Of a DNA stretch of 64,000 nt, positions 371 through 48,988 are shown piece by piece. The DNA comes from Candidatus Omnitrophota bacterium (GTDB lineage: Bacteria > Omnitrophota > Gorgyraeia > Duberdicusellales > 4484-171). The stretch spans positions 897 to 64,896 of the forward strand of contig JAFGQU010000023.1 of the NCBI GenBank assembly GCA_016935525.1, given 5' to 3'. Numbering within the stretch: the first letter of the stretch is position 1; each line of letters opens with the position of its first letter. A program made the position numbers and the translations under genes. The notes under the pieces are model-generated. The model was not told the DNA's origin. It searched no databases and was given only the letters and a program-made list of their open reading frames with translations.

Positions 371-1023
371 CTGACCATAGCCCTGACGGGCTGTTCTTGA
401 GCATTCCCTTCATCCCTCAAAAATTCGTTCTGTTCCTCAATCAACCTCCTGTTGATTGTCTCGAGAGGCGTTTGTGGTCATTGTCGGGAAGTGATTCTAA
501 TGGTCTTCATAAAGGGGTTCCACCCCTCTCTGATGCTCGGCTTGTGAGATTTTCACAAGAAGAGTAGTCCACCTCGCTCTGTCACTCCCCGAAGATTCCC
601 AGGGAAGATACGCCATGCTGTAATGCCTGACCAAATCTCTCGATACTCTATCCGCTTACCGCTAATCGCTATCCGCTACTCAATGGTCGTCAGTCTCTGG
701 TCTTTGGCTATCATCTCTTGATTACCAAACTATAGACTACAGACCGTAGACTAAAGACTATCTTTCCTCTCACCGCTATACGCTATCCTTCATAAAACAA
801 TATCCTGCCCTCTGCCTTGATTTCGTATGTCTCAATATGTTACATATGTAAGGTTACACCTTTATACATAAAAGTGATGTAACCGCTACGGAACTAAACT
901 CACAATCCGGCACTCTTCGAGAGAGAGAATAAGCGACCCAACGGGAGACCTTGGGGAGATACGTCGTATTCCTTTATACAAAAAAGGGATAACGAGACAT
1001 CAATCCTCGTAAGAAACGTATAC

Positions 1024-1066
1024 AAACCCTAAGGTAACCACGGTTGCTTTAGGGTTTTTGTTTTTT
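1024..1066 (+). terminator. hairpin AAACCCTAAGG..CTTTAGGGTTT followed by TTGTTTTTT; intrinsic-terminator-like
   Basis: Read directly: 11 bp imperfect stem plus T-run, just upstream of the protease gene RBS. Confidence 0.45.
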
Positions 1067-1093
1067 ACAGGATCACGAGAGAAGGAGGGAAAA

Positions 1094-2428
1094 ATGAAAA
1101 AACGAGATGTACTCTTCTGTATATCGGTTATTTTACTTTTTATCATTTCGTGTTTTTTTGCGTATCTGGCCCAGGCCGGGGTCATGAATATGGTGGAACC
1201 GGCATATACCGCTAAAGGGACCACCTCCATGGCGGCGACCGTAAAAGCCGATACGTCGGTATCTACCTGGACGAAACCGAACACTATCGCAAATACTCTG
1301 GCCGGGATAAGTCAACCGGCAAAAACAGATTCTGTCGACAGCGGGAAAGGCGATACGGGAAGCCAGGCTAAAGTACCGGCACCTCAAGGCGGCGGCGGAG
1401 ATACCCCGAAAAACGTCGATCCCGGTAAACCGCAGGAACAACCCCAGCAAGGCGGCGGAACAAATCCTGTTCCTCCCAGCAGTGCACCTCAATCACAGGT
1501 AGTATTAATAGTCTATTTCGATCCATCACTGGACAATCCTCCCAATTCAGGGAACTATCAAGGAGGATCGTTCAGCGGAGGTATTCCCATCGGGCCTTAT
1601 ACAATCCTTACGGCCGGACATTCTGCCTCGATGATGCGGCCCGGAGATCCCCGTTCGGCTTATACGTACGGACCTTATTTCGGATCTAATTTAGGCAGCG
1701 GGATTGCTATGGACGGCGACGTCGATCATATCATTTATGCTCCCGGAAATTTAGATTTAGCTATCGTTGTATTTCGCAGTCCTATCTCCGGTGGTACACC
1801 GGTATCCATTGCTCCGGCGAATTCTCTTCAGCCGGGAGATACGGTACAGGTCTTCTTTGAACAGAATCTTGCTGCCGGATCGACTAATATTCAAGTCGAT
1901 TCTTTAGGACAGGACTCCGCGCCGGCGTATCATGGCGGGATGACTTGGGATAATTACCCGAACGCGTCATTTAGTACCTGGCAGACACCTACGGCAGCGG
2001 GAGATTCCGGATTCCCAGTATTGAACCAGTCCGGACAGGTAGTAGGAGTAGTTCACGGAGAAATAAACTATCCTATAGGAGGTAGTTTTGACCTCTTTAT
2101 GAATGTGACTCAGCCCGCAATAAACCAATGGGTCGTAAATAACGCGAATGCTCAACCAAACAGTCCTCCCCCGTCGAACCCGGCACCGGTGGTAAATACG
2201 GTACCGCAGACGAACAGCGCTCCCGTAACGAATAACGCGTACCAACCGGCAGCCCAGCCGGTCCAGCAGAATTCCGGCGGATCTACCTATACGGTACAGG
2301 CCGGAGACAATCTGTTCCGTATCGCGTTGAATCACGGAACGACGCTCGACGCGTTACGGCAGGCGAACGGATTGGGAGATTCTAACATTATCAATCCGGG
2401 ACAGGTATTGGTCATCCCCGGTTCGTAA
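1094..2428 (+). CDS. secreted trypsin-like (S1 family) serine peptidase with Gly/Pro/Gln-rich linker and C-terminal LysM domain
   Basis: GAAGGAGG RBS 5 nt before the ATG at 1094; N-terminal TM/signal segment; catalytic triad motifs TAGHS, DLAIV, GDSGFP; C-terminal LysM (YTVQAGDNLFRIA..INPGQVLVIPG). Confidence 0.8.
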   Translation: MKKRDVLFCISVILLFIISCFFAYLAQAGVMNMVEPAYTAKGTTSMAATVKADTSVSTWTKPNTIANTLAGISQPAKTDSVDSGKGDTGSQAKVPAPQGGGGDTPKNVDPGKPQEQPQQGGGTNPVPPSSAPQSQVVLIVYFDPSLDNPPNSGNYQGGSFSGGIPIGPYTILTAGHSASMMRPGDPRSAYTYGPYFGSNLGSGIAMDGDVDHIIYAPGNLDLAIVVFRSPISGGTPVSIAPANSLQPGDTVQVFFEQNLAAGSTNIQVDSLGQDSAPAYHGGMTWDNYPNASFSTWQTPTAAGDSGFPVLNQSGQVVGVVHGEINYPIGGSFDLFMNVTQPAINQWVVNNANAQPNSPPPSNPAPVVNTVPQTNSAPVTNNAYQPAAQPVQQNSGGSTYTVQAGDNLFRIALNHGTTLDALRQANGLGDSNIINPGQVLVIPGS

Positions 2429-39278: not shown

Positions 39279-40418
39279 TCATTCAAAGTCGGCATATATC
39301 TGCCCGATATCGATACCAGAGATGACCTGTGATTTATATTTCTCCGCAAGCGAGTATTTCGAATGGAGAAATATTTCGTTTTCTATCCCGTTTTTAAGCG
39401 CCAAATACACTTCGATAAAAGCCGAAAGGTCATCGACGGCTTTGACCAACTTCCCGTCACGTTCGACGCCGCCGCCGGGAGTGACTTTATCGCTGTATTC
39501 GTTTTCGGTAAACGATCTCATCTGCGCGTGCCATCCGTTCGGTAACAGTTTGTATATTTTCGTTTCCATCTCTTCTTTCTCGTAGTCTTTGATCAGTTCG
39601 TCGATCCCTTCGACCGATTTTTTTACCGGATTGATGATATCCCGGGTCAATACTTCCGGCAGGTCATGGAACAGGCCGGTAAAATAGTTATTGATCGCCC
39701 GGGAACATGCCGCCTGTTTCTGTAAGGAGAAAAGGTAGGAGACGATAGCAATGATCAGCATATGCCCCAATACCGACGTCTTCGGCACCCTCCAGACATG
39801 CCCCCAGCGCAACTGAAACCTCAGTTGCCCGCAGACGTCCACGAATTCACCAAGCGCGTCGTCTTTCAGCAACCGCTGCATACTGGAAAGGTCGCCATAT
39901 TTTTCCTGTTTGGCAAGCAGGTCGTTTTTTATCTCTTCAATCGCATACCCTTGAGGGTTTGCCCGTTCAATGATATTAAATTCCCACTTAGTGGCGTAAA
40001 AATGAGCGGCACTGATGATCCGGCGGTTCACATTCCGTTCGGTATCTAACAGGTACGATTTGAATCTCAGACAGAATCCCTCCCCCAATGGCGAGATGAC
40101 CGGGTATAACTTTTTGTATACCCACTCATTCAGGTCTTCGTACTTTTTCCGGTTTTCCTTTATACGGTGAAAGAGCGGCGGTTTAATATCGGTCAAAACC
40201 GTACGTTGAAGGAATTCGAATATCCCGCCTTCGACGATCTGGACCCAATCGAGCTTTTCGTTACCGGCGTCTTCTTCGCACCGGCCCAGCACATAGGCAA
40301 TGATCATCTTATGCGCCTGTTTATCAAGTTCGGTCAATTCGACCGGCCGGATCTGGTCATTCCACCGTTGCATACTTGCCGCGTCGAATATTTTTAAAAG
40401 GAGCGCTTTTCTTACCAT
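39279..40418 (-). CDS. HD-domain phosphohydrolase (YfbR-like 5'-deoxynucleotidase C-terminal half with about 170 aa N-terminal extension)
   Basis: H..HDLPE and downstream D motifs. Confidence 0.6.
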   Translation of the reverse strand: MVRKALLLKIFDAASMQRWNDQIRPVELTELDKQAHKMIIAYVLGRCEEDAGNEKLDWVQIVEGGIFEFLQRTVLTDIKPPLFHRIKENRKKYEDLNEWVYKKLYPVISPLGEGFCLRFKSYLLDTERNVNRRIISAAHFYATKWEFNIIERANPQGYAIEEIKNDLLAKQEKYGDLSSMQRLLKDDALGEFVDVCGQLRFQLRWGHVWRVPKTSVLGHMLIIAIVSYLFSLQKQAACSRAINNYFTGLFHDLPEVLTRDIINPVKKSVEGIDELIKDYEKEEMETKIYKLLPNGWHAQMRSFTENEYSDKVTPGGGVERDGKLVKAVDDLSAFIEVYLALKNGIENEIFLHSKYSLAEKYKSQVISGIDIGQIYADFE

Positions 40419-40445: not shown

Positions 40446-40793
40446 TTATTTTTTGTTCTCAGACAGCACATCAAGAAGATAAGATATGATCTGGCTGCGA
40501 TGTTCCGATGCGACTCTGATAAATTTTACGCCGACAAGGAACCGGAAATCTTTTTCCCGGCGCCAGCGGCACCATACCACTCGCCCGACGACCACGACCG
40601 GTTTTTTGAATTCGGAAAGAGCTATCTTAAGTTCAAGGATCGTCCCGGGCTCAAGCTTTTGGAATGCCGGCAGACGCACCCCGCCCTCACTGATATCGTG
40701 GGTAAGCGAGGCGGTCTTAAGTGCTCCTTTAAGTATACGGTATTTCAGCTTTACCGTATCCCCTACTCTGACATAACGTCTTCTTTCGGCCAT
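40446..40793 (-). CDS. PilZ domain protein (c-di-GMP receptor)
   Basis: RRRYVR and DISEGG motifs. Confidence 0.7.
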   Translation of the reverse strand: MAERRRYVRVGDTVKLKYRILKGALKTASLTHDISEGGVRLPAFQKLEPGTILELKIALSEFKKPVVVVGRVVWCRWRREKDFRFLVGVKFIRVASEHRSQIISYLLDVLSENKK

Positions 40794-40830
40794 AGAATAC
40801 TATCCCGCAAGTACCTGAAGAATCGATCGG

Positions 40831-41286
40831 CTATTCCACGACGATCGCCGCGATATCTTCACGTATCGGTTTTAATGCGATCTTTAAGCGCCCGTTATCC
40901 GTCCGGATGACGAAAAATTTGATCTCGGAAAGCCAGCGATACACGGTGGCAACCCCCCGGTCAGTCAAAGGGATCTCCCCGAAATCGTCGGGATTTATGA
41001 ATTGGGGACACTTTTCTCTATCGATCTCGGCCATATAGACCCGTCCTTCGTTGGTCTTAAAATAATACCGGTCACCGGCGGCATCAAGCCTTATCGCGCG
41101 GTTGCTGTTATTGGTAAGCGAGAGACGAAAATAATATTCCGAATAACCTGCCCCCCGGTCGCCGTAGCCGTAGCTTAAGAAAGCTTTCACCTGGCCTTTC
41201 GTCCCCATCATGATCAATTCTTCTCTTGAATACGCACACGGCACAGCGAATAAAAGACAAAAAATGAAAACAAATATTTTTTTCAT
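40831..41286 (-). CDS. secreted hypothetical protein
   Basis: Signal peptide MKKIFVFIFCLLFAVPCAYS. Confidence 0.5.
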   Translation of the reverse strand: MKKIFVFIFCLLFAVPCAYSREELIMMGTKGQVKAFLSYGYGDRGAGYSEYYFRLSLTNNSNRAIRLDAAGDRYYFKTNEGRVYMAEIDREKCPQFINPDDFGEIPLTDRGVATVYRWLSEIKFFVIRTDNGRLKIALKPIREDIAAIVVE

Positions 41287-41394
41287 ACGGTCCTCTCCTC
41301 CGGTTTTTCATAATTTTTTATACCGCACCACAATGATACACCGGGTCATATATTTCGTCAACAGAAAGTGACACAGACACCTGCAGGCCAGACA

Positions 41395-41625
41395 GTCACA
41401 CGACACATCCCGCACCGACATTTACGTATCTAGCGGGACCCCGCTGTATAAAAATATTACGGAGCGGGGCGTCACATAGTCACACGTCTAAGATACATAA
41501 TCAATACAAAATGAGCATTTAGCAATTAGCAATTTAAAATCAGAGATTCCTCTTGTTTTTATCATTGTGAACTGCTAATTGTTAATTGAACATTGCTAAT
41601 TTCCTATTCCCCTAATCGCTATCTG
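41395..41625. repeat. composite dispersed repeat, copy 3 (GTCACACGACAC + hairpin insert CCCCGCT..AGCGGGG + GTCACATAGTCACACGT + ATCAATACAAAATGAGCATTTAGCAATTAGCA + TGCTAATTGTTAATTGAACATTGCTAATTTCCTATTCCCCTAATCGCTATC)
   Basis: Direct comparison with copy 2. Confidence 0.7.
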
Positions 41626-41673
41626 CGATCATCAGGTTACCATCTGTGATCATCTGTGTAAGCCCAAAGGGAT

Positions 41674-41687
41674 CGGAAACGTTTACA
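41674..41687. promoter_or_regulatory. palindromic site cGGAAACGTTTACa
   Basis: One of three G(G/T)AAACGTTT(A/C)C sites in the window. Confidence 0.4.
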
Positions 41688-41782
41688 TAAAAATCCGGCG
41701 ATGGCCTTGAAAGGTTATCCCGCGATAGGTTATAAATGAATTGAAATAGGTACCTGCAGCCACAGAAGAGGTCCTAAAATAA

Positions 41783-41820
41783 AAGGAGGGAAATAAAAAA
41801 TCCCTCCTTTATTTTTTTAT
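41783..41820. terminator. bidirectional intrinsic terminator AAGGAGGGA-AATAAAAAA-TCCCTCCTT + TATTTTTTTAT
   Basis: Perfect 9 bp stem flanked by A-run and T-run. Confidence 0.7.
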
Positions 41821-41960
41821 CTTTTTCCGGAAGGTTCGCGGGGATATTCTCATAACCCAGGATGGCAAGGGGAGAAGGTCACGCTACATCACTATAGCGT
41901 ATCGGGCGGGGTCGCATTGCAAGAAGAACAATCGGGGCATCAGTTAAAAAATAAATATTT

Positions 41961-42188
41961 TTACGCGAGTCCGGTAATTGTTCTTTTTCTTATTTTACCA
42001 TGGATGATTCTTGCCGTCTCCGGACTGATATCTTCCCAGAAACCGGAAACCGTACGTCGTTTCACGCGTCCGTCATGATGGATAAAGAACGCGTATTCAT
42101 AGAAACTGTTTACGTACTTGGCATAGACAAGTAACCCTCCACGGATAGGGCGTACTTCACTGACTTTTAGATTATCCAAGGTATACAT
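41961..42188 (-). CDS. small hypothetical protein (75 aa)
   Basis: ORF only. Confidence 0.35.
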   Translation of the reverse strand: MYTLDNLKVSEVRPIRGGLLVYAKYVNSFYEYAFFIHHDGRVKRRTVSGFWEDISPETARIIHGKIRKRTITGLA

Positions 42189-42285
42189 TCATCCCCCCTC
42201 TCGACCTTAGGTTCTCTTTAGAACGAAAACGATAATTTTACACACCTGCGTCTCAAAGAACGTATCGATTCGATAAGCCTTCGGC

Positions 42286-42561
42286 TTATTTCACCCGCCG
42301 GTCTTTCAGGCGGTAGACCAATAACCCCGCGATAAGGATAAGCGGGATGATATATATTAAAAAATGAAAGACAAAAGTAGTCACTACCTGAAATATCGAA
42401 AGGCTCAACAACGCGTCTATTCCCGAAAGAAACGTATCCGGCTCTTTTAATCCCCAGAACCGCCAGCTTCCGAAAAGGTCATACCGTATCGCGTACCATA
42501 CCCATACGATACAGATGGCGACCAAAGTACCCCATATTACTTTACTCTGTTTCCTGTTCAT
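42286..42561 (-). CDS. small membrane protein, hypothetical
   Basis: Start chosen at the ATG preceded by AGAGGATGAAGTC to avoid overlapping the GGDEF gene; 3 TM segments. Confidence 0.4.
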   Translation of the reverse strand: MNRKQSKVIWGTLVAICIVWVWYAIRYDLFGSWRFWGLKEPDTFLSGIDALLSLSIFQVVTTFVFHFLIYIIPLILIAGLLVYRLKDRRVK

Positions 42562-42649
42562 GACTTCATCCTCTAATACTATCATTCTATTAGCTTTTGA
42601 ATTAAAAAGAAAGCATAATCTTGTAAACCCGGTATTTTCTCCTCTATAC

Positions 42650-45082
42650 TCATCCATGGAGCACATTTTCTTCTTTAGCGATGACCTGTAAAAACCGATC
42701 GACGATCTCAGGATCAAACTGCGTACCGGCTCCTTCTCTGATTATATTCAAAGCGTCTTGGTGAGAAAACGCCTTCCGGTAAGCGCGGTCGGAAATAAGC
42801 GCATGGTACACATCGGCGACGGCGATTATCCGCGCCCCGACAGGGATATCTTCTCCGCTCAATCCATGAGGATACCCGGTCCCGTCCCACCATTCATGAT
42901 GATGAAGGATAGACGGTATGAGATCATGCAAATACTGTATCGGACGGATGATATCGACCGCTATATTGGGATGTTTTTTTATCTCATCGTATTCTTTCCT
43001 GGTGAGCGCGGATTTTTTAAGAAGGATCTTCTCGCTGATACCGATCTTACCCAGATCGTGAAGGATCGCCGCCTGTTTTATACATTCGACTTCCTCTTTA
43101 GGCAGATTCAAGCTATGGGCGATCTCGGCGACATAATGTTCGGTATTTTCGGTATGCGTGCCGGTATAGTGGTCTTTCACTTTAATGGTCTTGGCAAAAG
43201 CGAATACCGCCTCGATCAGGCTCTGGTTCGCCCGTTTATTCAGCCGGTTGATCTTTTCCTGCAAAAAGGAGATATCGTTAAACGCGTTCACCTGGCCAGA
43301 TAAGTTCAACCGGCGGTCTGTATATAAGTCTCCGGAAGTATAGATACGATTGCCGCCGTCTTCTTTTACTTTATTCAGGATACGGTCGACTGATTTAAAC
43401 AGATCCATCGGTTCAAACGCCCCGTCTTCGGGATACGATACGATGGCGCTGCTCAGTTTTAATTTCACTTTGATTTTATGGTTCCCGAAATCATATAAAT
43501 GGATATGATCGAATATCCTTTGTACAAGCTTTAGCGCGGTCACCCGGTCGGTCCCCGGCGAAATAATGATGAATTCTTCGCCGCCGAAACGCACCGCGCT
43601 GTCGTAGCGGCGGACTTTCTTTTTTAATACCCGGGCAAACTGCCTGAGCACCAGATCGCCGAATTGATGGCCGTAGACATCGTTGATAGATTTGAAATAA
43701 TCCAGGTCTATCATGATGATCGAAAGCGGATGATGCGATCTTTTCGCGCGATAGAATTCCCGAATGAGCACTTCTTCGAAATAACGATGATTATACAATC
43801 TGGTCTGAGAATCGATGAGCGATAACCGGTGAAGTCGCTTATTCGACTTGACGAGTTGACGGTTCAATAATTCCCGTTCCTCCTCGATCCGTTTACGCTG
43901 GCTGATATTACGCACGTATTCGACGACTCCCCGAGACCGGCCTTGATTATCTACAATCGGGAACGCATACAGTTCAAGCGTCCCGGTTATCCCGTCAGGC
44001 TGGGTGAGCGGGACTTCATACATCTCCAGTTTATTCGTACGCAACGCTTTCAGTGTAGGGCAACGGGAACAGGCTTTTTTTCGACCGTGATACGCTTCAT
44101 AACATTTCTTACCTTCTAAAGGCAAGGCATGAGCGTACCATCGTTTCATCGCTTCGTTCACCCGTACGATATTGAGCCCGGTATCAAGCACACTGATGCC
44201 GTCCTGGATACTGTCAAATACGGTACTCAAAAATTTATCGCGCTCGCGCAGGGTTTCCTGGGCCTTTTTACGCTGGCTGATATCACGGACAACGGCAAGG
44301 ATCCGTTTTTCATCGCCGCCGGTCACATATTTCAAGTTCACTTCCACCCAGAATTCTTTTCCCCAACGGTCTTTCGCCAGCCACTCGAATACCTGCGGGC
44401 CTTCCTTTATCGCCCGGCGTAACCACAGCTCTACTTCTTTCTGGGTATAGGGAGGCTTGTTGGCGCTGATATCGGCGACACTGAGCGTTACCGCCTCTTC
44501 ACGGGTAAATCCGTACAGCTCGATCATGCGGTCGTTGACATCGATTATCTTCCCGGTTTTGGGGTCATGGACAAAAATAGCGTCACTGGCCGAATTAAAT
44601 ATATTGTGGTAATTTTTTGCGGCAATCATAACCTTCTCTTCGGCAGCTTTGCGTTCGGTCACATCGCGGATGACCGCAAGGATAAAAGCCGATTTACCGG
44701 ATTTATCGGTGATTGCCGATGCGCTGATCTCCCCGATAAAAGTGCTTCCGTCTTTTCTTACCAGCTGATAAGGAAGGTCGCGGGTCTGGCCGTCGCGGAA
44801 TGTCCTCTGGATATTTTTGATCGCGCGGATCCTCTCTTTAGGAGCAAAAAACTGTAGACCGTGACGGCCGGTTACTTCTTCAAGTTTTTCGTATCCGTAT
44901 AATTTGAGAGCCTGGGAATTAGCCATCCGGACCTTGAGGTGGGCATCGGTAAGGACGATCGCATCCGGAGAGATCTTCACCAGAGCGCTGTAAAGGTCCA
45001 ATCCGTTATGCGGGATTTTCTGGGGATCATCACTATAACGGGAACTCTCATCCTTGAATCTAAATAACCGTTTAAATACCAT
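42650..45082 (-). CDS. PAS/PAS/PAS-GGDEF-HD-GYP bifunctional c-di-GMP cyclase/phosphodiesterase
   Basis: RFGGEEFII (GGDEF), HD..HHEWWDGTGYP (HD-GYP), multiple PAS/PAC. Confidence 0.85.
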   Translation of the reverse strand: MVFKRLFRFKDESSRYSDDPQKIPHNGLDLYSALVKISPDAIVLTDAHLKVRMANSQALKLYGYEKLEEVTGRHGLQFFAPKERIRAIKNIQRTFRDGQTRDLPYQLVRKDGSTFIGEISASAITDKSGKSAFILAVIRDVTERKAAEEKVMIAAKNYHNIFNSASDAIFVHDPKTGKIIDVNDRMIELYGFTREEAVTLSVADISANKPPYTQKEVELWLRRAIKEGPQVFEWLAKDRWGKEFWVEVNLKYVTGGDEKRILAVVRDISQRKKAQETLRERDKFLSTVFDSIQDGISVLDTGLNIVRVNEAMKRWYAHALPLEGKKCYEAYHGRKKACSRCPTLKALRTNKLEMYEVPLTQPDGITGTLELYAFPIVDNQGRSRGVVEYVRNISQRKRIEEERELLNRQLVKSNKRLHRLSLIDSQTRLYNHRYFEEVLIREFYRAKRSHHPLSIIMIDLDYFKSINDVYGHQFGDLVLRQFARVLKKKVRRYDSAVRFGGEEFIIISPGTDRVTALKLVQRIFDHIHLYDFGNHKIKVKLKLSSAIVSYPEDGAFEPMDLFKSVDRILNKVKEDGGNRIYTSGDLYTDRRLNLSGQVNAFNDISFLQEKINRLNKRANQSLIEAVFAFAKTIKVKDHYTGTHTENTEHYVAEIAHSLNLPKEEVECIKQAAILHDLGKIGISEKILLKKSALTRKEYDEIKKHPNIAVDIIRPIQYLHDLIPSILHHHEWWDGTGYPHGLSGEDIPVGARIIAVADVYHALISDRAYRKAFSHQDALNIIREGAGTQFDPEIVDRFLQVIAKEENVLHG

Positions 45083-45108
45083 CTCCTCCTACCAGCCTTA
45101 AAAATATA

Positions 45109-45146
45109 AAGAGGTAGCCACCTCTTACCGTGGCTACCTCTTTTTA
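45109..45146 (-). terminator. strong hairpin AAGAGGTAGCCAC-CTCTTACC-GTGGCTACCTCTT + T-run inside the 5' leader of the GGDEF-HD-GYP gene
   Basis: 13 bp perfect stem; T-rich on both flanks; only about 25 nt from the gene RBS. Confidence 0.6.
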
Positions 45147-45267
45147 TCAACACTGTGGGGGATTTTCCCTCGATTTACCCCCTTTTTTAATGTAACATAT
45201 CCAGCCGGCACACGTCAAGGGCATGGCCATAAATTACTGGAATACAGTAGGTTATGAACAGAAAATT

Positions 45268-45283
45268 CTGGAAACGTTTCCAG
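45268..45283. promoter_or_regulatory. 16 bp perfect palindrome CTGGAAACGTTTCCAG
   Basis: Read directly. Confidence 0.45.
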
Positions 45284-45318
45284 GACTACCCATAAATCCC
45301 CGGTGAGAACACGCCCCA

Positions 45319-45651
45319 CTATCCGGCCGACTTTAATACTCTCAGTAATATACGTTGGTCGGCGGGAGATATCTTAATAAATTCTACTCCAACCATAAAG
45401 GGATGTTGTTCATTGGTGACCGGATAAGACCAGAGCACCTTGCCTGACGCGTCGATTGTAGCGTCCGAATCGAGGATATGGATCTGCATCTCGATGATCA
45501 CTCCGTCGGCTAAACGCTGCGGAATAGAGAAACTGATCCCTCCCTGACTGACGTTCTTACTTTTAGTCTCAGTACGCAGGAACCCTTTCTGGACTCTATA
45601 GGATATCCGTACGTTCTTATTGATCCTTACAAATCTGCGTCTTTCTTCCAT
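45319..45651 (-). CDS. PilZ domain protein (paralog of 40446-40793)
   Basis: RRRFVR and NVSQGG motifs. Confidence 0.7.
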   Translation of the reverse strand: MEERRRFVRINKNVRISYRVQKGFLRTETKSKNVSQGGISFSIPQRLADGVIIEMQIHILDSDATIDASGKVLWSYPVTNEQHPFMVGVEFIKISPADQRILLRVLKSAG

Positions 45652-45674
45652 ATTCTTTTAATTAAAGGGCACCT

Positions 45675-46256
45675 TCAGCCTTTAAGATTATCGGCATTTT
45701 CCTTGAGCATATTACAAAAAAGCCATCCCTGTTCGATCGCATCGTTTAAAGCGATATGACTTTTTGCTGATTCGTCAAACCAGTGTTTCGGCATACTGCT
45801 TTTGGTGATCGAGAGAAAAGGTTTTTTTAAAATAGCCATAGCATAGGTCTTGATATCCAGAGCGACAAAAGAAAACGGGTTTTCTCCGGTAAACTTGATC
45901 AGGTACCAGTTAATAAACATAAAGTCAAAAGATGCCGGGTATCCGACAAATACGGGTTTGGCGGGAAGATCTTTTAACCAGCGAAGATATTTTTTCATCG
46001 CGTCTTGAGGGGTTTCGGGATCACGGCGGGATTCTTCCCACGCGGTTTTCTGAGTTTCCCACCATTTCATCGTTTCGGGATCTTGCCGGGCGCCGGGTAA
46101 CGGCTGCAAGTTAACGGTAAACGTGGCGATTTTCTCTTTTTGAGCGGTAAATGCGGCCGAACCGAAACTGAGCATAGAGAATTCACCCGGTATCGGCCCG
46201 TCAGTCTCTATATCCGTACTTACATACACTTCTTTTTGCGGATTATTTTTTTGCAT
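45675..46256 (-). CDS. DEDDh 3'-5' exonuclease (DnaQ superfamily; Rv2179c-like)
   Basis: DIETDG, FDFMF and HIALNDA motifs. Confidence 0.65.
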
Positions 46257-46277
46257 AGATAAAAAAGGAAAGGACTA

Positions 46278-46757
46278 TTACCAGTAAAGCTGTTGAAACT
46301 GCCGGGAATAACGGTTCACCCATTCAAAAGAAGCTTCTTCTATAGTTATGTCGTCACCGGACTGGATACTGCGCAGATCACGGTATTCACTGATCAAATA
46401 CATCTGCTCGATAAGGCGTACCCGGAACGCTTCCGAAGAAGTCTCAAAACTGACTCCGATATTATACAAGCCGCCCTTTTCACTCTCCGAACAATGGACC
46501 ACTTTGCCTTTGACATTATATACTTTATCCTCAAACGGCATTTTGATCATGATCAGAGAATCTATCTCTGCCGGATGTTTCGCAGAAAAGAGTAACCCGC
46601 CCCGGGAGATATTGCGGGTATGGACATTCCCCTGATGCAGGGCCTGAGAGGCGCCCCGTTTGATCACCCGGTAACTTAACGGGAAACACATCGGGTGACG
46701 GATAAACTGGCGGCGTTCACTGGTCTTTTTATGTTGTTTCATAGTATCCGGTTCCAT
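46278..46757 (-). CDS. PilZ-like protein with conserved C-terminal extension
   Basis: RRQFIR, NISRGGLLF; C-terminus RLIEQMYLISEY..QQLYW shared with 47552-48025. Confidence 0.65.
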   Translation of the reverse strand: MEPDTMKQHKKTSERRQFIRHPMCFPLSYRVIKRGASQALHQGNVHTRNISRGGLLFSAKHPAEIDSLIMIKMPFEDKVYNVKGKVVHCSESEKGGLYNIGVSFETSSEAFRVRLIEQMYLISEYRDLRSIQSGDDITIEEASFEWVNRYSRQFQQLYW

Positions 46758-46823
46758 ATTTTTATATTCAATAATACTATCTCCTCCTCACTTGGTCAAG
46801 GGCCAAATTCACAAAGAAGATAT

Positions 46824-47360
46824 TTATTTTTTCTCATAGGTCCCGATAAGTTCGGTATAATCCAACACCGAATCTTCCATAGCTCTTAAAAGGTCCTCTT
46901 TACCGGCACCGACGGTAAGATCAAGTCTCTTATCGAGCGCATACAATTTGAAAAAATAACGGTGGCTTCCCGAAGGAGGACAAGGCCCGCCGTAACTGGT
47001 CCGTTTAAAATCGTTTATCCCTTGAATCCCCGGCACACTGTCCTCGGAGATCTTCTTAGTATCCGGCGGGATATTAAATACGACCCAATGGACCCAGGTC
47101 CCCATCGGGGCATCGGGATCATCGACGATCAAAACTAACGCTTTGGTCCGGGGCGGGATGTGTTCTATTTTAAGCGCGGGATTTATATCCTTCCCCTGAC
47201 AGGTAAACTTTCGCGGGATGACTTCGTTATGATTAAATTCAAGAGCGTGAAGCGTCATCGTCTCAGCCGGCTTTCTCGCATAAGAATATGACGAGAGCGA
47301 TAACACACACAGGGCCCCTACTATAATACGTATTTCTCTCTTGCCTAAAAAAGCGCCCAT
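46824..47360 (-). CDS. YbhB/YbcL family PEBP (Raf kinase inhibitor-like) protein, secreted
   Basis: DPDAP and GPCPPSGSHRYFFKLYALD signatures. Confidence 0.8.
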   Translation of the reverse strand: MGAFLGKREIRIIVGALCVLSLSSYSYARKPAETMTLHALEFNHNEVIPRKFTCQGKDINPALKIEHIPPRTKALVLIVDDPDAPMGTWVHWVVFNIPPDTKKISEDSVPGIQGINDFKRTSYGGPCPPSGSHRYFFKLYALDKRLDLTVGAGKEDLLRAMEDSVLDYTELIGTYEKK

Positions 47361-47374
47361 CTTTTCTCCTTATC

Positions 47375-47515
47375 CTAATGCGTATGGTTTTCTAAAAGTT
47401 CCTGGATATCTTTCAACTCATGGTGTAATTCATCGAATTCCCGTCGTATCGAGAAATCACTACTGAATTGATTGATCAGGATCCCGATTAGAATAATCAA
47501 AATGATCCACGACAT
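47375..47515 (-). CDS. unannotated small membrane-anchored protein (46 aa: MSWIILIILIGILINQFSSDFSIRREFDELHHELKDIQELLENHTH)
   Basis: ATG preceded by AAAAGGGGGTAAT RBS; below the 60 aa track cutoff. Confidence 0.35.
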   Translation of the reverse strand: MSWIILIILIGILINQFSSDFSIRREFDELHHELKDIQELLENHTH

Positions 47516-47551
47516 ATTACCCCCTTTTTGCGGCCCTTATTCCGAATCAGA

Positions 47552-48025
47552 TTACCAATAGAGTTTTTGAAACTTCTGGGAATATCGACGCAACCACTCA
47601 CGGGATGCCTCAGGCAGGGAAATCTCACGGCCCAGCTGTTGCTTACGCAATTGCCAGTACTCACCGATCAAATACATCTGTTCGATAAGCCGGACACGAA
47701 AAGCGTCGCTGACATCCTGAAAGTTTACCCCCACCAGGTAATGGTTTTCTCGAGAGTCTTTCGTACAATGAACGACTTTGGCATGTACGGTATATACTTT
47801 ATTGCGAAAAGGGATCTTTATTTTAAGTACAGCGTTTTTGGTAAGCACTTCGCGCGTAGCGAACAAAAGCCCGCCCCGGCTGATATTAAGAGTCCGGGAT
47901 TTGCCTTTCGTTGATTTTTGAGACAGACAGGACCTTTTTTTTACGACCTGATATTCAAACGGGAGGCTGATCGGATGACGTATTGATTGTCTGCGTTCCT
48001 GAGGGTCTTGCTTACGTGCGGCCAT
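47552..48025 (-). CDS. PilZ-like protein, paralog of 46278-46757
   Basis: RRQSIR, NISRGGLLF, C-terminus RLIEQMYLIGEY..QKLYW. Confidence 0.65.
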   Translation of the reverse strand: MAARKQDPQERRQSIRHPISLPFEYQVVKKRSCLSQKSTKGKSRTLNISRGGLLFATREVLTKNAVLKIKIPFRNKVYTVHAKVVHCTKDSRENHYLVGVNFQDVSDAFRVRLIEQMYLIGEYWQLRKQQLGREISLPEASREWLRRYSQKFQKLYW

Positions 48026-48121
48026 CGGTTATTCTTTCGGTTAAAATCTATTCAGATTATAATACTATTTCCGAAAGAAACGGTCAACCTGATTGATTTT
48101 ATTCTGGGCTACCGGAATGGA

Positions 48122-48988
48122 TCAAAAAGAGAGGTAGTCTTCTCGGGAAGAGAGAGCGTGTATCGCCCGGGTGATCCGGGATAATGACCGTTCGTCATGC
48201 TGGCGTTTAGTATCCAGCGAACAATACTCAGAAAGCGCCTCGGTCGCGTATGCCGAGAGCGTTTGATATATTTCGTTTTCCCGGGAATTTTTATTTTCCA
48301 GAGCTACAAACACGTTAAAGATATGCTGTACCGTTTCAGCCCGGAACGTTTGGTTATATTCTACGGTAAAAAAATCGCAGAGTGTCCGGGCGATCACTAC
48401 CGGGTCCTCATCGATCATCATCATAATCTCCTCTGACGCGGCGCGTACCGTTTCTTCCCTGCTGGTAAATCCATAAAGTACCAGCGGGACGACCATTTTT
48501 TTTCCCTGCGCGGCGATGAGCTCTTTCTTGGCACTACACAGGCTGTCATCGCCTCTTGATTCCAGGGAAAGGATTATCCCGCCGATCACCGAATAGTAAT
48601 TTAAAATGATGCTTAATTCCTCGCCGCCGATACTTTTCTCCATATGTACCTGATCGATACCTTTAAGTACTTGATGAATAAGTTGAGCGCTCTTGTCCAC
48701 GGTACGTTCGTCGCGGGAGCCCCACAACTCAGCCAACAGTAACGCTTCCTCATCATTTAACGGCTGGAAATTATCGAGTTTTTTCTGGATAAGCGATAAC
48801 AATTTTAATTCTTCGGCAACAACCGCGGGTTCTTCCCGAGTGATCTTTTCCCAATCGACCCACTGGGCGTTATTGACCGCTTTAGCCAGAAGGTTTTCTT
48901 CGGCATACGCCGAGAATTGATAGGTATCCTTACGGCAAGGCCCCATCACGATAATAATCACCAGGCTCAACAAAAATATCCGTTTCAT
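48122..48988 (-). CDS. secreted hypothetical protein
   Basis: Signal peptide MKRIFLLSLVIIIVMGPC. Confidence 0.5.
   Translation of the reverse strand: MKRIFLLSLVIIIVMGPCRKDTYQFSAYAEENLLAKAVNNAQWVDWEKITREEPAVVAEELKLLSLIQKKLDNFQPLNDEEALLLAELWGSRDERTVDKSAQLIHQVLKGIDQVHMEKSIGGEELSIILNYYSVIGGIILSLESRGDDSLCSAKKELIAAQGKKMVVPLVLYGFTSREETVRAASEEIMMMIDEDPVVIARTLCDFFTVEYNQTFRAETVQHIFNVFVALENKNSRENEIYQTLSAYATEALSEYCSLDTKRQHDERSLSRITRAIHALSSREDYLSF

Follow-up and report, generated by a model that had tools for sequence, protein, structure and literature searches.

A conserved promoter and terminator-containing leader upstream of a PAS-GGDEF-HD-GYP gene in a PilZ gene cluster of Omnitrophota

What does an intrinsic terminator do when it lies between the promoter and the ribosome-binding site of a gene? 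The question is raised by a 64-kb stretch of Omnitrophota DNA (hereafter the window), in which a terminator-containing leader precedes the gene of a c-di-GMP synthase/hydrolase inside a cluster of PilZ receptor genes, and for which an initial annotation had proposed attenuation or riboswitch control. Omnitrophota are almost entirely uncultured and no published account of their gene-expression control was found; the locus offers a concrete, conserved example of their promoter architecture.

Gene content of the locus and relatives

The gene downstream of the leader (42650–45082, minus strand), opening with an ATG at 45082, encodes, by domain search, three PAS domains followed by a GGDEF and an HD-GYP domain with intact GGEEF and HHE..GYP motifs, and both motifs are likewise intact in the ortholog of the related locus L081, in which the N-terminus is conserved from residue 1. 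A Shine-Dalgarno (SD) sequence, AGGAGGAG, was read from the sequence at 45090–45083 (minus strand), immediately before the ATG. On the other side of the gap lies the gene of a 110-aa PilZ protein, PilZ(110) (45319–45651, minus strand; stop codon 45321–45319), identified by a Pfam PilZ match and by synteny with L081. It is the last gene of a PilZ/PEBP/DEDD-exonuclease cluster, in which the same-strand genes upstream of the gap are, in order, PilZ(157), a 46-aa ORF, a PEBP/YbhB-like gene, PilZ(159), a DEDD (Rv2179c-like) exonuclease gene and PilZ(110).

Within the 236-bp gap between PilZ(110) and the GGDEF gene, the palindrome, the promoter, the two hairpins and the SD/ATG listed in the initial annotation were all recovered on the minus strand and in the order given there; the full order in gene sense is palindrome, CATAACC, promoter, G5/C5 hairpin, terminator, SD and ATG. 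The gap is identical in an independent Logan assembly (L091) and is thus not an assembly artefact, and the 116-nt leader folds with a z of −6.4. As a whole, the gap is best explained as the control region of the PAS-GGDEF-HD-GYP gene.

The wider neighbourhood was observed to form a c-di-GMP island (40446–48988, minus strand) of PilZ receptors, the DEDD exonuclease, the PEBP/YbhB-like protein, the GGDEF-HD-GYP gene and an HD_3/YfbR-like protein, the last of which is encoded at 39279–40418 on the minus strand. The stand-alone PilZ genes number four (40446–40793, 45319–45651, 46278–46757 and 47552–48025, all on the minus strand), and the Rv2179c-like 3'-5' exonuclease (45675–46256, minus strand) is a conceivable degrader of pGpG or nanoRNA. 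A small ORF of 46–47 aa (47375–47515, minus strand, and L081 3487–3630) sits between PilZ157 and the PEBP gene; its nucleotide sequence is conserved between the window and L081, and it has a AAAAAGGGGGTAAT-ATG start, is called by gene callers in L081 and L091, and gave no Pfam match. Past the GGDEF gene and two ORFs of 143 and 75 aa with no assigned function, a bidirectional terminator-like hairpin, AAAGGAGGGA...TCCCTCCTTT (41783–41810, both strands; −14.1 kcal/mol), with T-runs on either side, is the probable end point of the GGDEF transcription unit.

A protein of a Candidatus Omnitrophica MAG, the source of the window, matches the GGDEF protein at 100% identity. The sole syntenic ortholog found was that of L081 (P0002), with 71% protein identity and a 249-nt gap, and the gene order from a 288-aa ORF through the GGDEF gene is the same there as in the window. 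A closer relative, L088, was found as one fragment by a search with the 110-aa PilZ protein; its genes are 90–93% identical to those of the window and its contig ends 70 nt into the gap. A scan of the genome collection with the GGDEF protein gave matches of at most 41% identity, none of those examined being syntenic, and the relatives at 57%, 45% and 37% (L082, L083, L089 and L090) are without the PilZ neighbour and the leader. The search for homologs of the N-terminal fragment gave no matches, the exact look-up of the PilZ protein returned only the identical Logan contig, the metagenome DNA scan with the promoter pattern returned 4 chance matches only, and a gapped pattern search over all 91 loci recovered the known copies only.

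Conserved blocks, promoter and upstream palindrome

At conserved four-fold codons, the window and L081 agree in 0.32–0.47 of third positions; four-fold sites are thus near saturation, and chance would not be expected to leave 16 identical nucleotides in a row. Identical in both sequences are the −35 and −10 blocks, GGGGGTA, GAGGGAAAA, CCCCC, GGTAGCCA, GGCTACCT and the T-run, and the blocks of the gap kept in L081 also include CTGGAAnCGTTTCCA, CATAACC, AGGGGGTA and TATTTTTA. No indels separate the window from L081 between the palindrome and the −10, and even L088, a close relative, differs from the window over the 35–45 nt that directly follow the PilZ stop. The MAFFT alignment of the two sequences misplaced the 5' hairpin. 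Judged from these comparisons, it is conservation, and not the rarity of any single feature, that lifts the feature set above chance.

A sigma-70-type promoter was located by promoter scan and conservation at 45189–45221 (minus strand). Its −35 hexamer TTGACG (45218–45213) lies within the block CCCTTGACG, and its −10 hexamer TACATT (45194–45189), with an 18-nt spacer and a TG extended −10, lies within the block ATATGTTACATTAAAA (45200–45185). The pair first proposed, TTGACG-17-TTACAT, marks the same site, although the scan prefers TTGACG-18-TACATT, shifted by one base. Promoter-like matches numbered 16 in 7 kb against 11.2 expected, which is not significant alone. L081 matches the −35 block (9 nt) and the −10 block (16 nt) at 100% identity, while the spacer between them has diverged at equal length, and the site thus shows the layout of a sigma-70-type promoter, with hexamers 17 ± 1 bp apart that the orthologs conserve around a free spacer. 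The promoters of PilZ157 and PilZ159 (48087–48059 and 46799–46771, minus strand) share the same hexamers, TTGACC-17-TATTAT, are both conserved in L081, and exhibit conserved hexamer blocks with a free spacer in the same pattern as the GGDEF promoter; because these neighbouring promoters share its conservation signature, the GGDEF blocks are read as a real promoter. The −10 of the PilZ159 promoter ends 13 nt before the ATG, so that the mRNA would be nearly leaderless. At the usual 7-nt distance from the −10, transcription from the GGDEF promoter is predicted to start at about 45182 (about 45183–45181), the first G of the G5/C5 hairpin. The U-tract of the terminator ends 9–10 nt before the SD, which leaves no room for a promoter downstream of the terminator. 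A weak −10-like TATATT was observed in the T-tract itself (TATTTT in L081), with no −35 in either genome, and this element could give the GGDEF gene a separate, −35-less promoter.

Further upstream, the sequence contains a perfect 16-bp palindrome, CTGGAAACGTTTCCAG (45283–45268, strand not assigned), as a candidate transcription-factor site. Perfect 16-bp palindromes number 5 in the window against about 0.9 in shuffles, which is not significant alone, and TGGAA-N4-TTCCA has its single occurrence in the 64 kb at this palindrome. The core of the palindrome is kept as CTGGAAACGTTTGCAG in L088 and CTGGAAGCGTTTCCAC in L081, next to diverged DNA directly past the PilZ stop, and its centre lies at about −93.5 from the predicted transcription start in the window and L081 alike. 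Each relative departs from the symmetry on one side and does not compensate on the other, as would be expected of a DNA site rather than of an RNA hairpin. Read as a terminator, the palindrome with its T-rich tail gives only a weak 6-bp hairpin, and a sigma-54 reading was rejected because the GG..GC spacing is wrong in the sequences of the window and L088. At about 93 nt upstream of the predicted start, upstream transcription-factor site is a better name than operator, the term used in the initial annotation; the palindrome is more plausibly a candidate activator or distal site than an operator.

Operators of the LacI/GalR family follow a generic TGnAAnCGnTTnCA palindrome with a central CG, such as the CcpA cre and PurR boxes. 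The palindrome TGGAAACGTTTCCA, with its central CG, presumably resembles such an operator, a likeness that serves as a lead only; it has the AA-N-CG-N-TT core and the 14–16-bp two-fold symmetry of these sites, but its centre near −93 places it clear of the promoter, and a regulon search gave no further copies in the window or, L089 excepted, in the collected loci. No LacI-family regulator was found among the subset of window proteins scanned. At L089 3795–3825, a perfect 12-bp palindrome, GAAAACGTTTTC, lies inside the spacer of a TTGAAA-17-TATACT promoter; this promoter belongs to a PAS-GGDEF-HD-GYP gene from a different Omnitrophota genome, with 45% identity. The core AAACGTTT is common to the palindromes of L089 and the window, which may, to judge by this likeness, be sites of a shared regulator. 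The CATAACC block (45256–45250, minus strand), between the palindrome and the −35, is invariant in the window, L088 and L081.

The 5' hairpin and the promoter-proximal terminator

The predicted 5' end of the RNA coincides with a hairpin, GGGGG-(16-nt loop)-CCCCC (45182–45157, minus strand), in which GGGGG at 45182–45178 pairs with CCCCC at 45161–45157; the GGGGGT..TCCCCC hairpin noted at the outset is thus present, with a G5/C5 stem. Its energy is −10.0 kcal/mol in the window and −8.7 kcal/mol in L081, where the stem is invariant and a 13-nt insertion falls within the loop, which measures 16 nt in the window versus 27–29 nt in L081 (an extra L081 U-G pair being counted or not). The 5' half of the loop, UAnAU-GAGGGAAAA, is conserved. 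Stabilising stem-loops at the 5' terminus are known in mRNAs, for example in the ompA and aprE leaders, and the G5/C5 hairpin is similar in starting 1–2 nt from the predicted 5' end; it differs from them in its conserved loop sequence, which a stabilising role does not need. ANTAR-type antitermination employs two tandem short hexaloop hairpins, the second of which overlaps the 5' arm of the terminator, and was rejected here, where a single upstream hairpin with a large loop (16 nt in the window, 27 nt in L081) lies 8–13 nt away from the terminator. Leader peptides were likewise rejected: the 5-codon ATG mini-ORF after GGGGG in L081 is not conserved in the window, and a 58-aa GTG ORF of the window (44977–45153) is without SD and not conserved.

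The intrinsic terminator (45143–45100, minus strand) comprises a 14-bp stem, AAAGAGGTAGCCAC / GTGGCTACCTCTTT (45143–45130 / 45121–45108), with 7 G-C pairs, an 8-nt loop, GGTAAGAG, and the U-tract TTTATATTTTT, the T-run continuing to 45100. The stem is made up of an 11-bp G+C-rich core and 3 A-U pairs, and the G+C-rich stem, short loop and adjoining U-tract that characterise intrinsic terminators are all observed in the window. At −24.7 kcal/mol it is the strongest hairpin with a T-run across the 64 kb, and an A-run upstream of the stem makes it terminator-like on the plus strand too. It had been described as a 13-bp stem with a T-run about 25 nt before the RBS; the terminator itself holds, with a stem of 14 bp, while about 25 nt proved to be the distance from the stem to the ATG, the SD being 17 nt from the stem and 9 nt from the T-run. 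Strong terminators are rare in the window, and another one also directly precedes an RBS.

In L081 the terminator retains GGTAGCC/GGCTACC within a 10-bp stem, with a 16-nt loop, the U-tract TTTTTGTATTTTT and an energy of −13.5 kcal/mol, and the stems of the two sequences are set apart by a 2-bp indel that affects both arms and leaves the pairing intact (AAAG[AG]GTAGCC / GGCTAC[CT]CTTT). The variable arm spacing in both hairpins argues for RNA structure and against a dimeric protein site on DNA. No base-pair covariation was found in the stems of the two full sequences, the stems being conserved as sequence. The GGTAGC core in the 5' arm presumably resembles the ops element of RfaH, the match being partial and without the pause TG. 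An ATG in the terminator loop of L081 (5951–6003) shares the reading frame of the GGDEF ORF, so that annotation could wrongly extend the N-terminus by 17 codons; this ATG is not conserved in the window. Among about 60 homologous GGDEF-HD-GYP genes of other lineages, none was found to have a terminator within 90 nt of the start, which makes the arrangement a feature of a narrow clade and not of the gene family.

Attenuation and its alternatives

As no promoter fits past the terminator, the gene can be expressed from the conserved promoter only by transcripts that pass the terminator, and in formal terms this amounts to attenuation. The proposal of attenuation or riboswitch control is sustained, formally, in its first half, with a conserved promoter-hairpin-terminator-SD order and the need for read-through, but not in its second, as neither a riboswitch nor an antiterminator was found. 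Our preferred reading, a tentative one at a probability of about 0.4, is that the promoter-proximal terminator serves as an attenuator and insulator, past which transcription would proceed by leakage or with the help of a factor. The conserved sigma-70-type promoter, with the palindromic site about 93 bp upstream, would give an RNA starting at about 45182, the first 26 nt of which would fold into the G5/C5 hairpin, and about 40 nt past the start this RNA would meet the canonical intrinsic terminator. Most transcripts, from the gene's own promoter and from the PilZ operon, would stop there by default, with an RNA of about 83 nt as the product and the c-di-GMP enzyme gene left insulated, and the GGDEF-HD-GYP gene would be expressed through read-through only. 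Such read-through could be a constitutive leak or, more likely, could be promoted by a trans-acting factor (protein or RNA), because the 5' hairpin loop and the terminator stem are conserved as sequence. That loop and stem are conserved beyond the needs of folding is a hint that a trans factor recognises them or that the short RNA has a trans role. What is observed are the elements, their order and their conservation; the transcription start, termination in vivo and any regulation of read-through are inferred, and regulation is supported by no more than the conservation between two sequences.

Several observations weigh against the attenuator and insulator: the stems lack covariation in the two sequences, the perfect 14-bp terminator with no visible competing structure offers no mechanism of read-through, the terminator may mainly end the PilZ operon, the short RNA may be a functional product (sRNA) and not a by-product, and the −10-like TATATT of the T-tract could serve the gene separately. 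In layout, the leader resembles, as an orphan example, a terminator-type riboswitch or attenuator leader, or a terminated-leader sRNA. Regulated read-through would make the locus an attenuator linked to c-di-GMP but not related to the GEMM riboswitches; otherwise, it would simply be an insulating terminator or a small orphan sRNA.

The second of these outcomes includes an independent sRNA gene of about 83 nt acting in trans, with expression of the GGDEF gene left to incidental read-through or to a weak promoter that overlaps; we consider this rather unlikely. Terminated leaders can double as trans-acting sRNAs, as Listeria SreA/SreB do, and the present leader is like these or like intergenic Hfq-type sRNA genes in having its own conserved promoter, a canonical terminator, a product of about 80 nt and no conserved ORF between promoter and terminator in the window and L081; the A/U-rich stretch before the terminator hairpin and the long U-tail are likewise shared with them. 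Conservation at the 5' end and in the terminator, with a variable stretch between them, would also suit an sRNA, as would a second promoter-structured RNA-terminator-RBS unit at 817–1094, which has the same ATATGTTACAT −10 block and a weakly similar 3' part. The leader differs from sRNA genes in lying directly in cis to a gene without other obvious promoter, and it sits where cis leaders typically do, on the same strand and 10 nt before the SD. No complementary target was found in the window, where the conserved 5' segment matched only itself, half of this segment is buried in the G5/C5 stem, and the GGDEF gene would still require its own promoter.

A plain operon-end terminator without regulation, with the promoter weakly and constitutively attenuated or the −35-less T-tract promoter in use, is unlikely. 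It would agree with the lack of any other strong terminator past the PilZ genes (the palindrome with its T-rich tail giving only the 6-bp hairpin), with the rarity of strong terminators in the window, another of which also stands directly before an RBS, and with the weaker L081 version (−13.5 kcal/mol, 16-nt loop), which would leak. On the other hand, the promoter lies upstream of the terminator in both genomes, termination alone would not require the sequence conservation seen in the stem and the 5' hairpin loop while four-fold sites are near saturation, and neither genome provides a −35 for the −10-like element of the T-tract.

There is no indication of a ligand-driven RNA switch, and a metabolite riboswitch of an undescribed kind (for example for c-di-GMP, pGpG or GTP), in which the 5' hairpin would be a small aptamer controlling the terminator, is highly improbable. 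In its favour are the gene of a c-di-GMP enzyme adjoining several PilZ receptors and a DEDD exonuclease, the conserved loop sequence GAGGGAAAA and the classical layout with a terminator as expression platform. The riboswitches c-di-GMP-I (GEMM-I, RF01051), modelled as two adjacent hairpins with a tetraloop-receptor contact, and c-di-GMP-II (RF01786), with a pseudoknotted aptamer, occur upstream of GGDEF/EAL/HD-GYP genes, and the leader shares with them, and with attenuator leaders, a promoter, a structured 5' leader, a Rho-independent terminator, an SD and an ORF for a c-di-GMP turnover enzyme. Unlike those riboswitches, it is far shorter than their aptamers and matches no covariance model. 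The whole window gave no Rfam match at the gathering score, against the riboswitch suggested at the outset; with E up to 10, 1 kb of the window and 301 nt of L081 gave unrelated chance matches that differed between the orthologs. The c-di-GMP-I model gave no match at the gathering score, nor at E up to 10 on 1 kb of the window or on 301 nt of L081, and the c-di-GMP-II model gave none in these scans either. The fold comparison of terminator versus antiterminator likewise gave no alternative, the 5' arm of the terminator being unpaired in the nascent RNA. The best terminator-free folds are less stable by 20–27 kcal/mol in the window and by 8.5–10.6 kcal/mol in L081, and constrained folding yielded no helix common to both; no counterpart was found of the conserved alternative helix with which a terminator/antiterminator platform ties up one arm of the terminator. 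The absence of an Rfam match and of an antiterminator helix, the short pre-terminator RNA (about 40–55 nt) and the variable hairpin loop, which tolerates the 13-nt insertion, together make a metabolite riboswitch unlikely, and the element is also missing upstream of the about 60 homologous genes.

That all features are chance matches without function is scarcely credible, as palindromes and promoter-like matches are indeed common in the window but the block-wise conservation stands against near-saturated neutral sites.

A broader possibility, which we regard as quite improbable on the present sequences, is an undescribed class of small regulatory RNA of Omnitrophota, which would act as a factor- or ligand-dependent attenuator of the bifunctional c-di-GMP enzyme and might be paralogous with the unit at 817–1094, in cis or in a dual cis/trans role. 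With two full sequences, the leader can at present be called a candidate, but not a defined RNA class.

The unit at 817–1094 (plus strand) has the same layout as the GGDEF leader, with a promoter, a non-coding RNA, a strong terminator and an RBS. Its promoter, TTGATT-N12-ATATGTTACATA, contains the same −10 block as the GGDEF promoter, and its RNA of about 215 nt has no ORF, folds with a z of −6.9 and gave no Rfam match. The terminator is an 18-bp hairpin with a T-run (1021–1060, −20.6 kcal/mol), followed by AAGGAGGG and by the ATG at 1094 of a trypsin-like/LysM protein. The 3' 80 nt of the unit align weakly with the GGDEF leader (local score 31 versus 20 ± 3 in shuffles), and this alignment includes GGTAACCACGG versus GGTAGCCACGG in the terminator.
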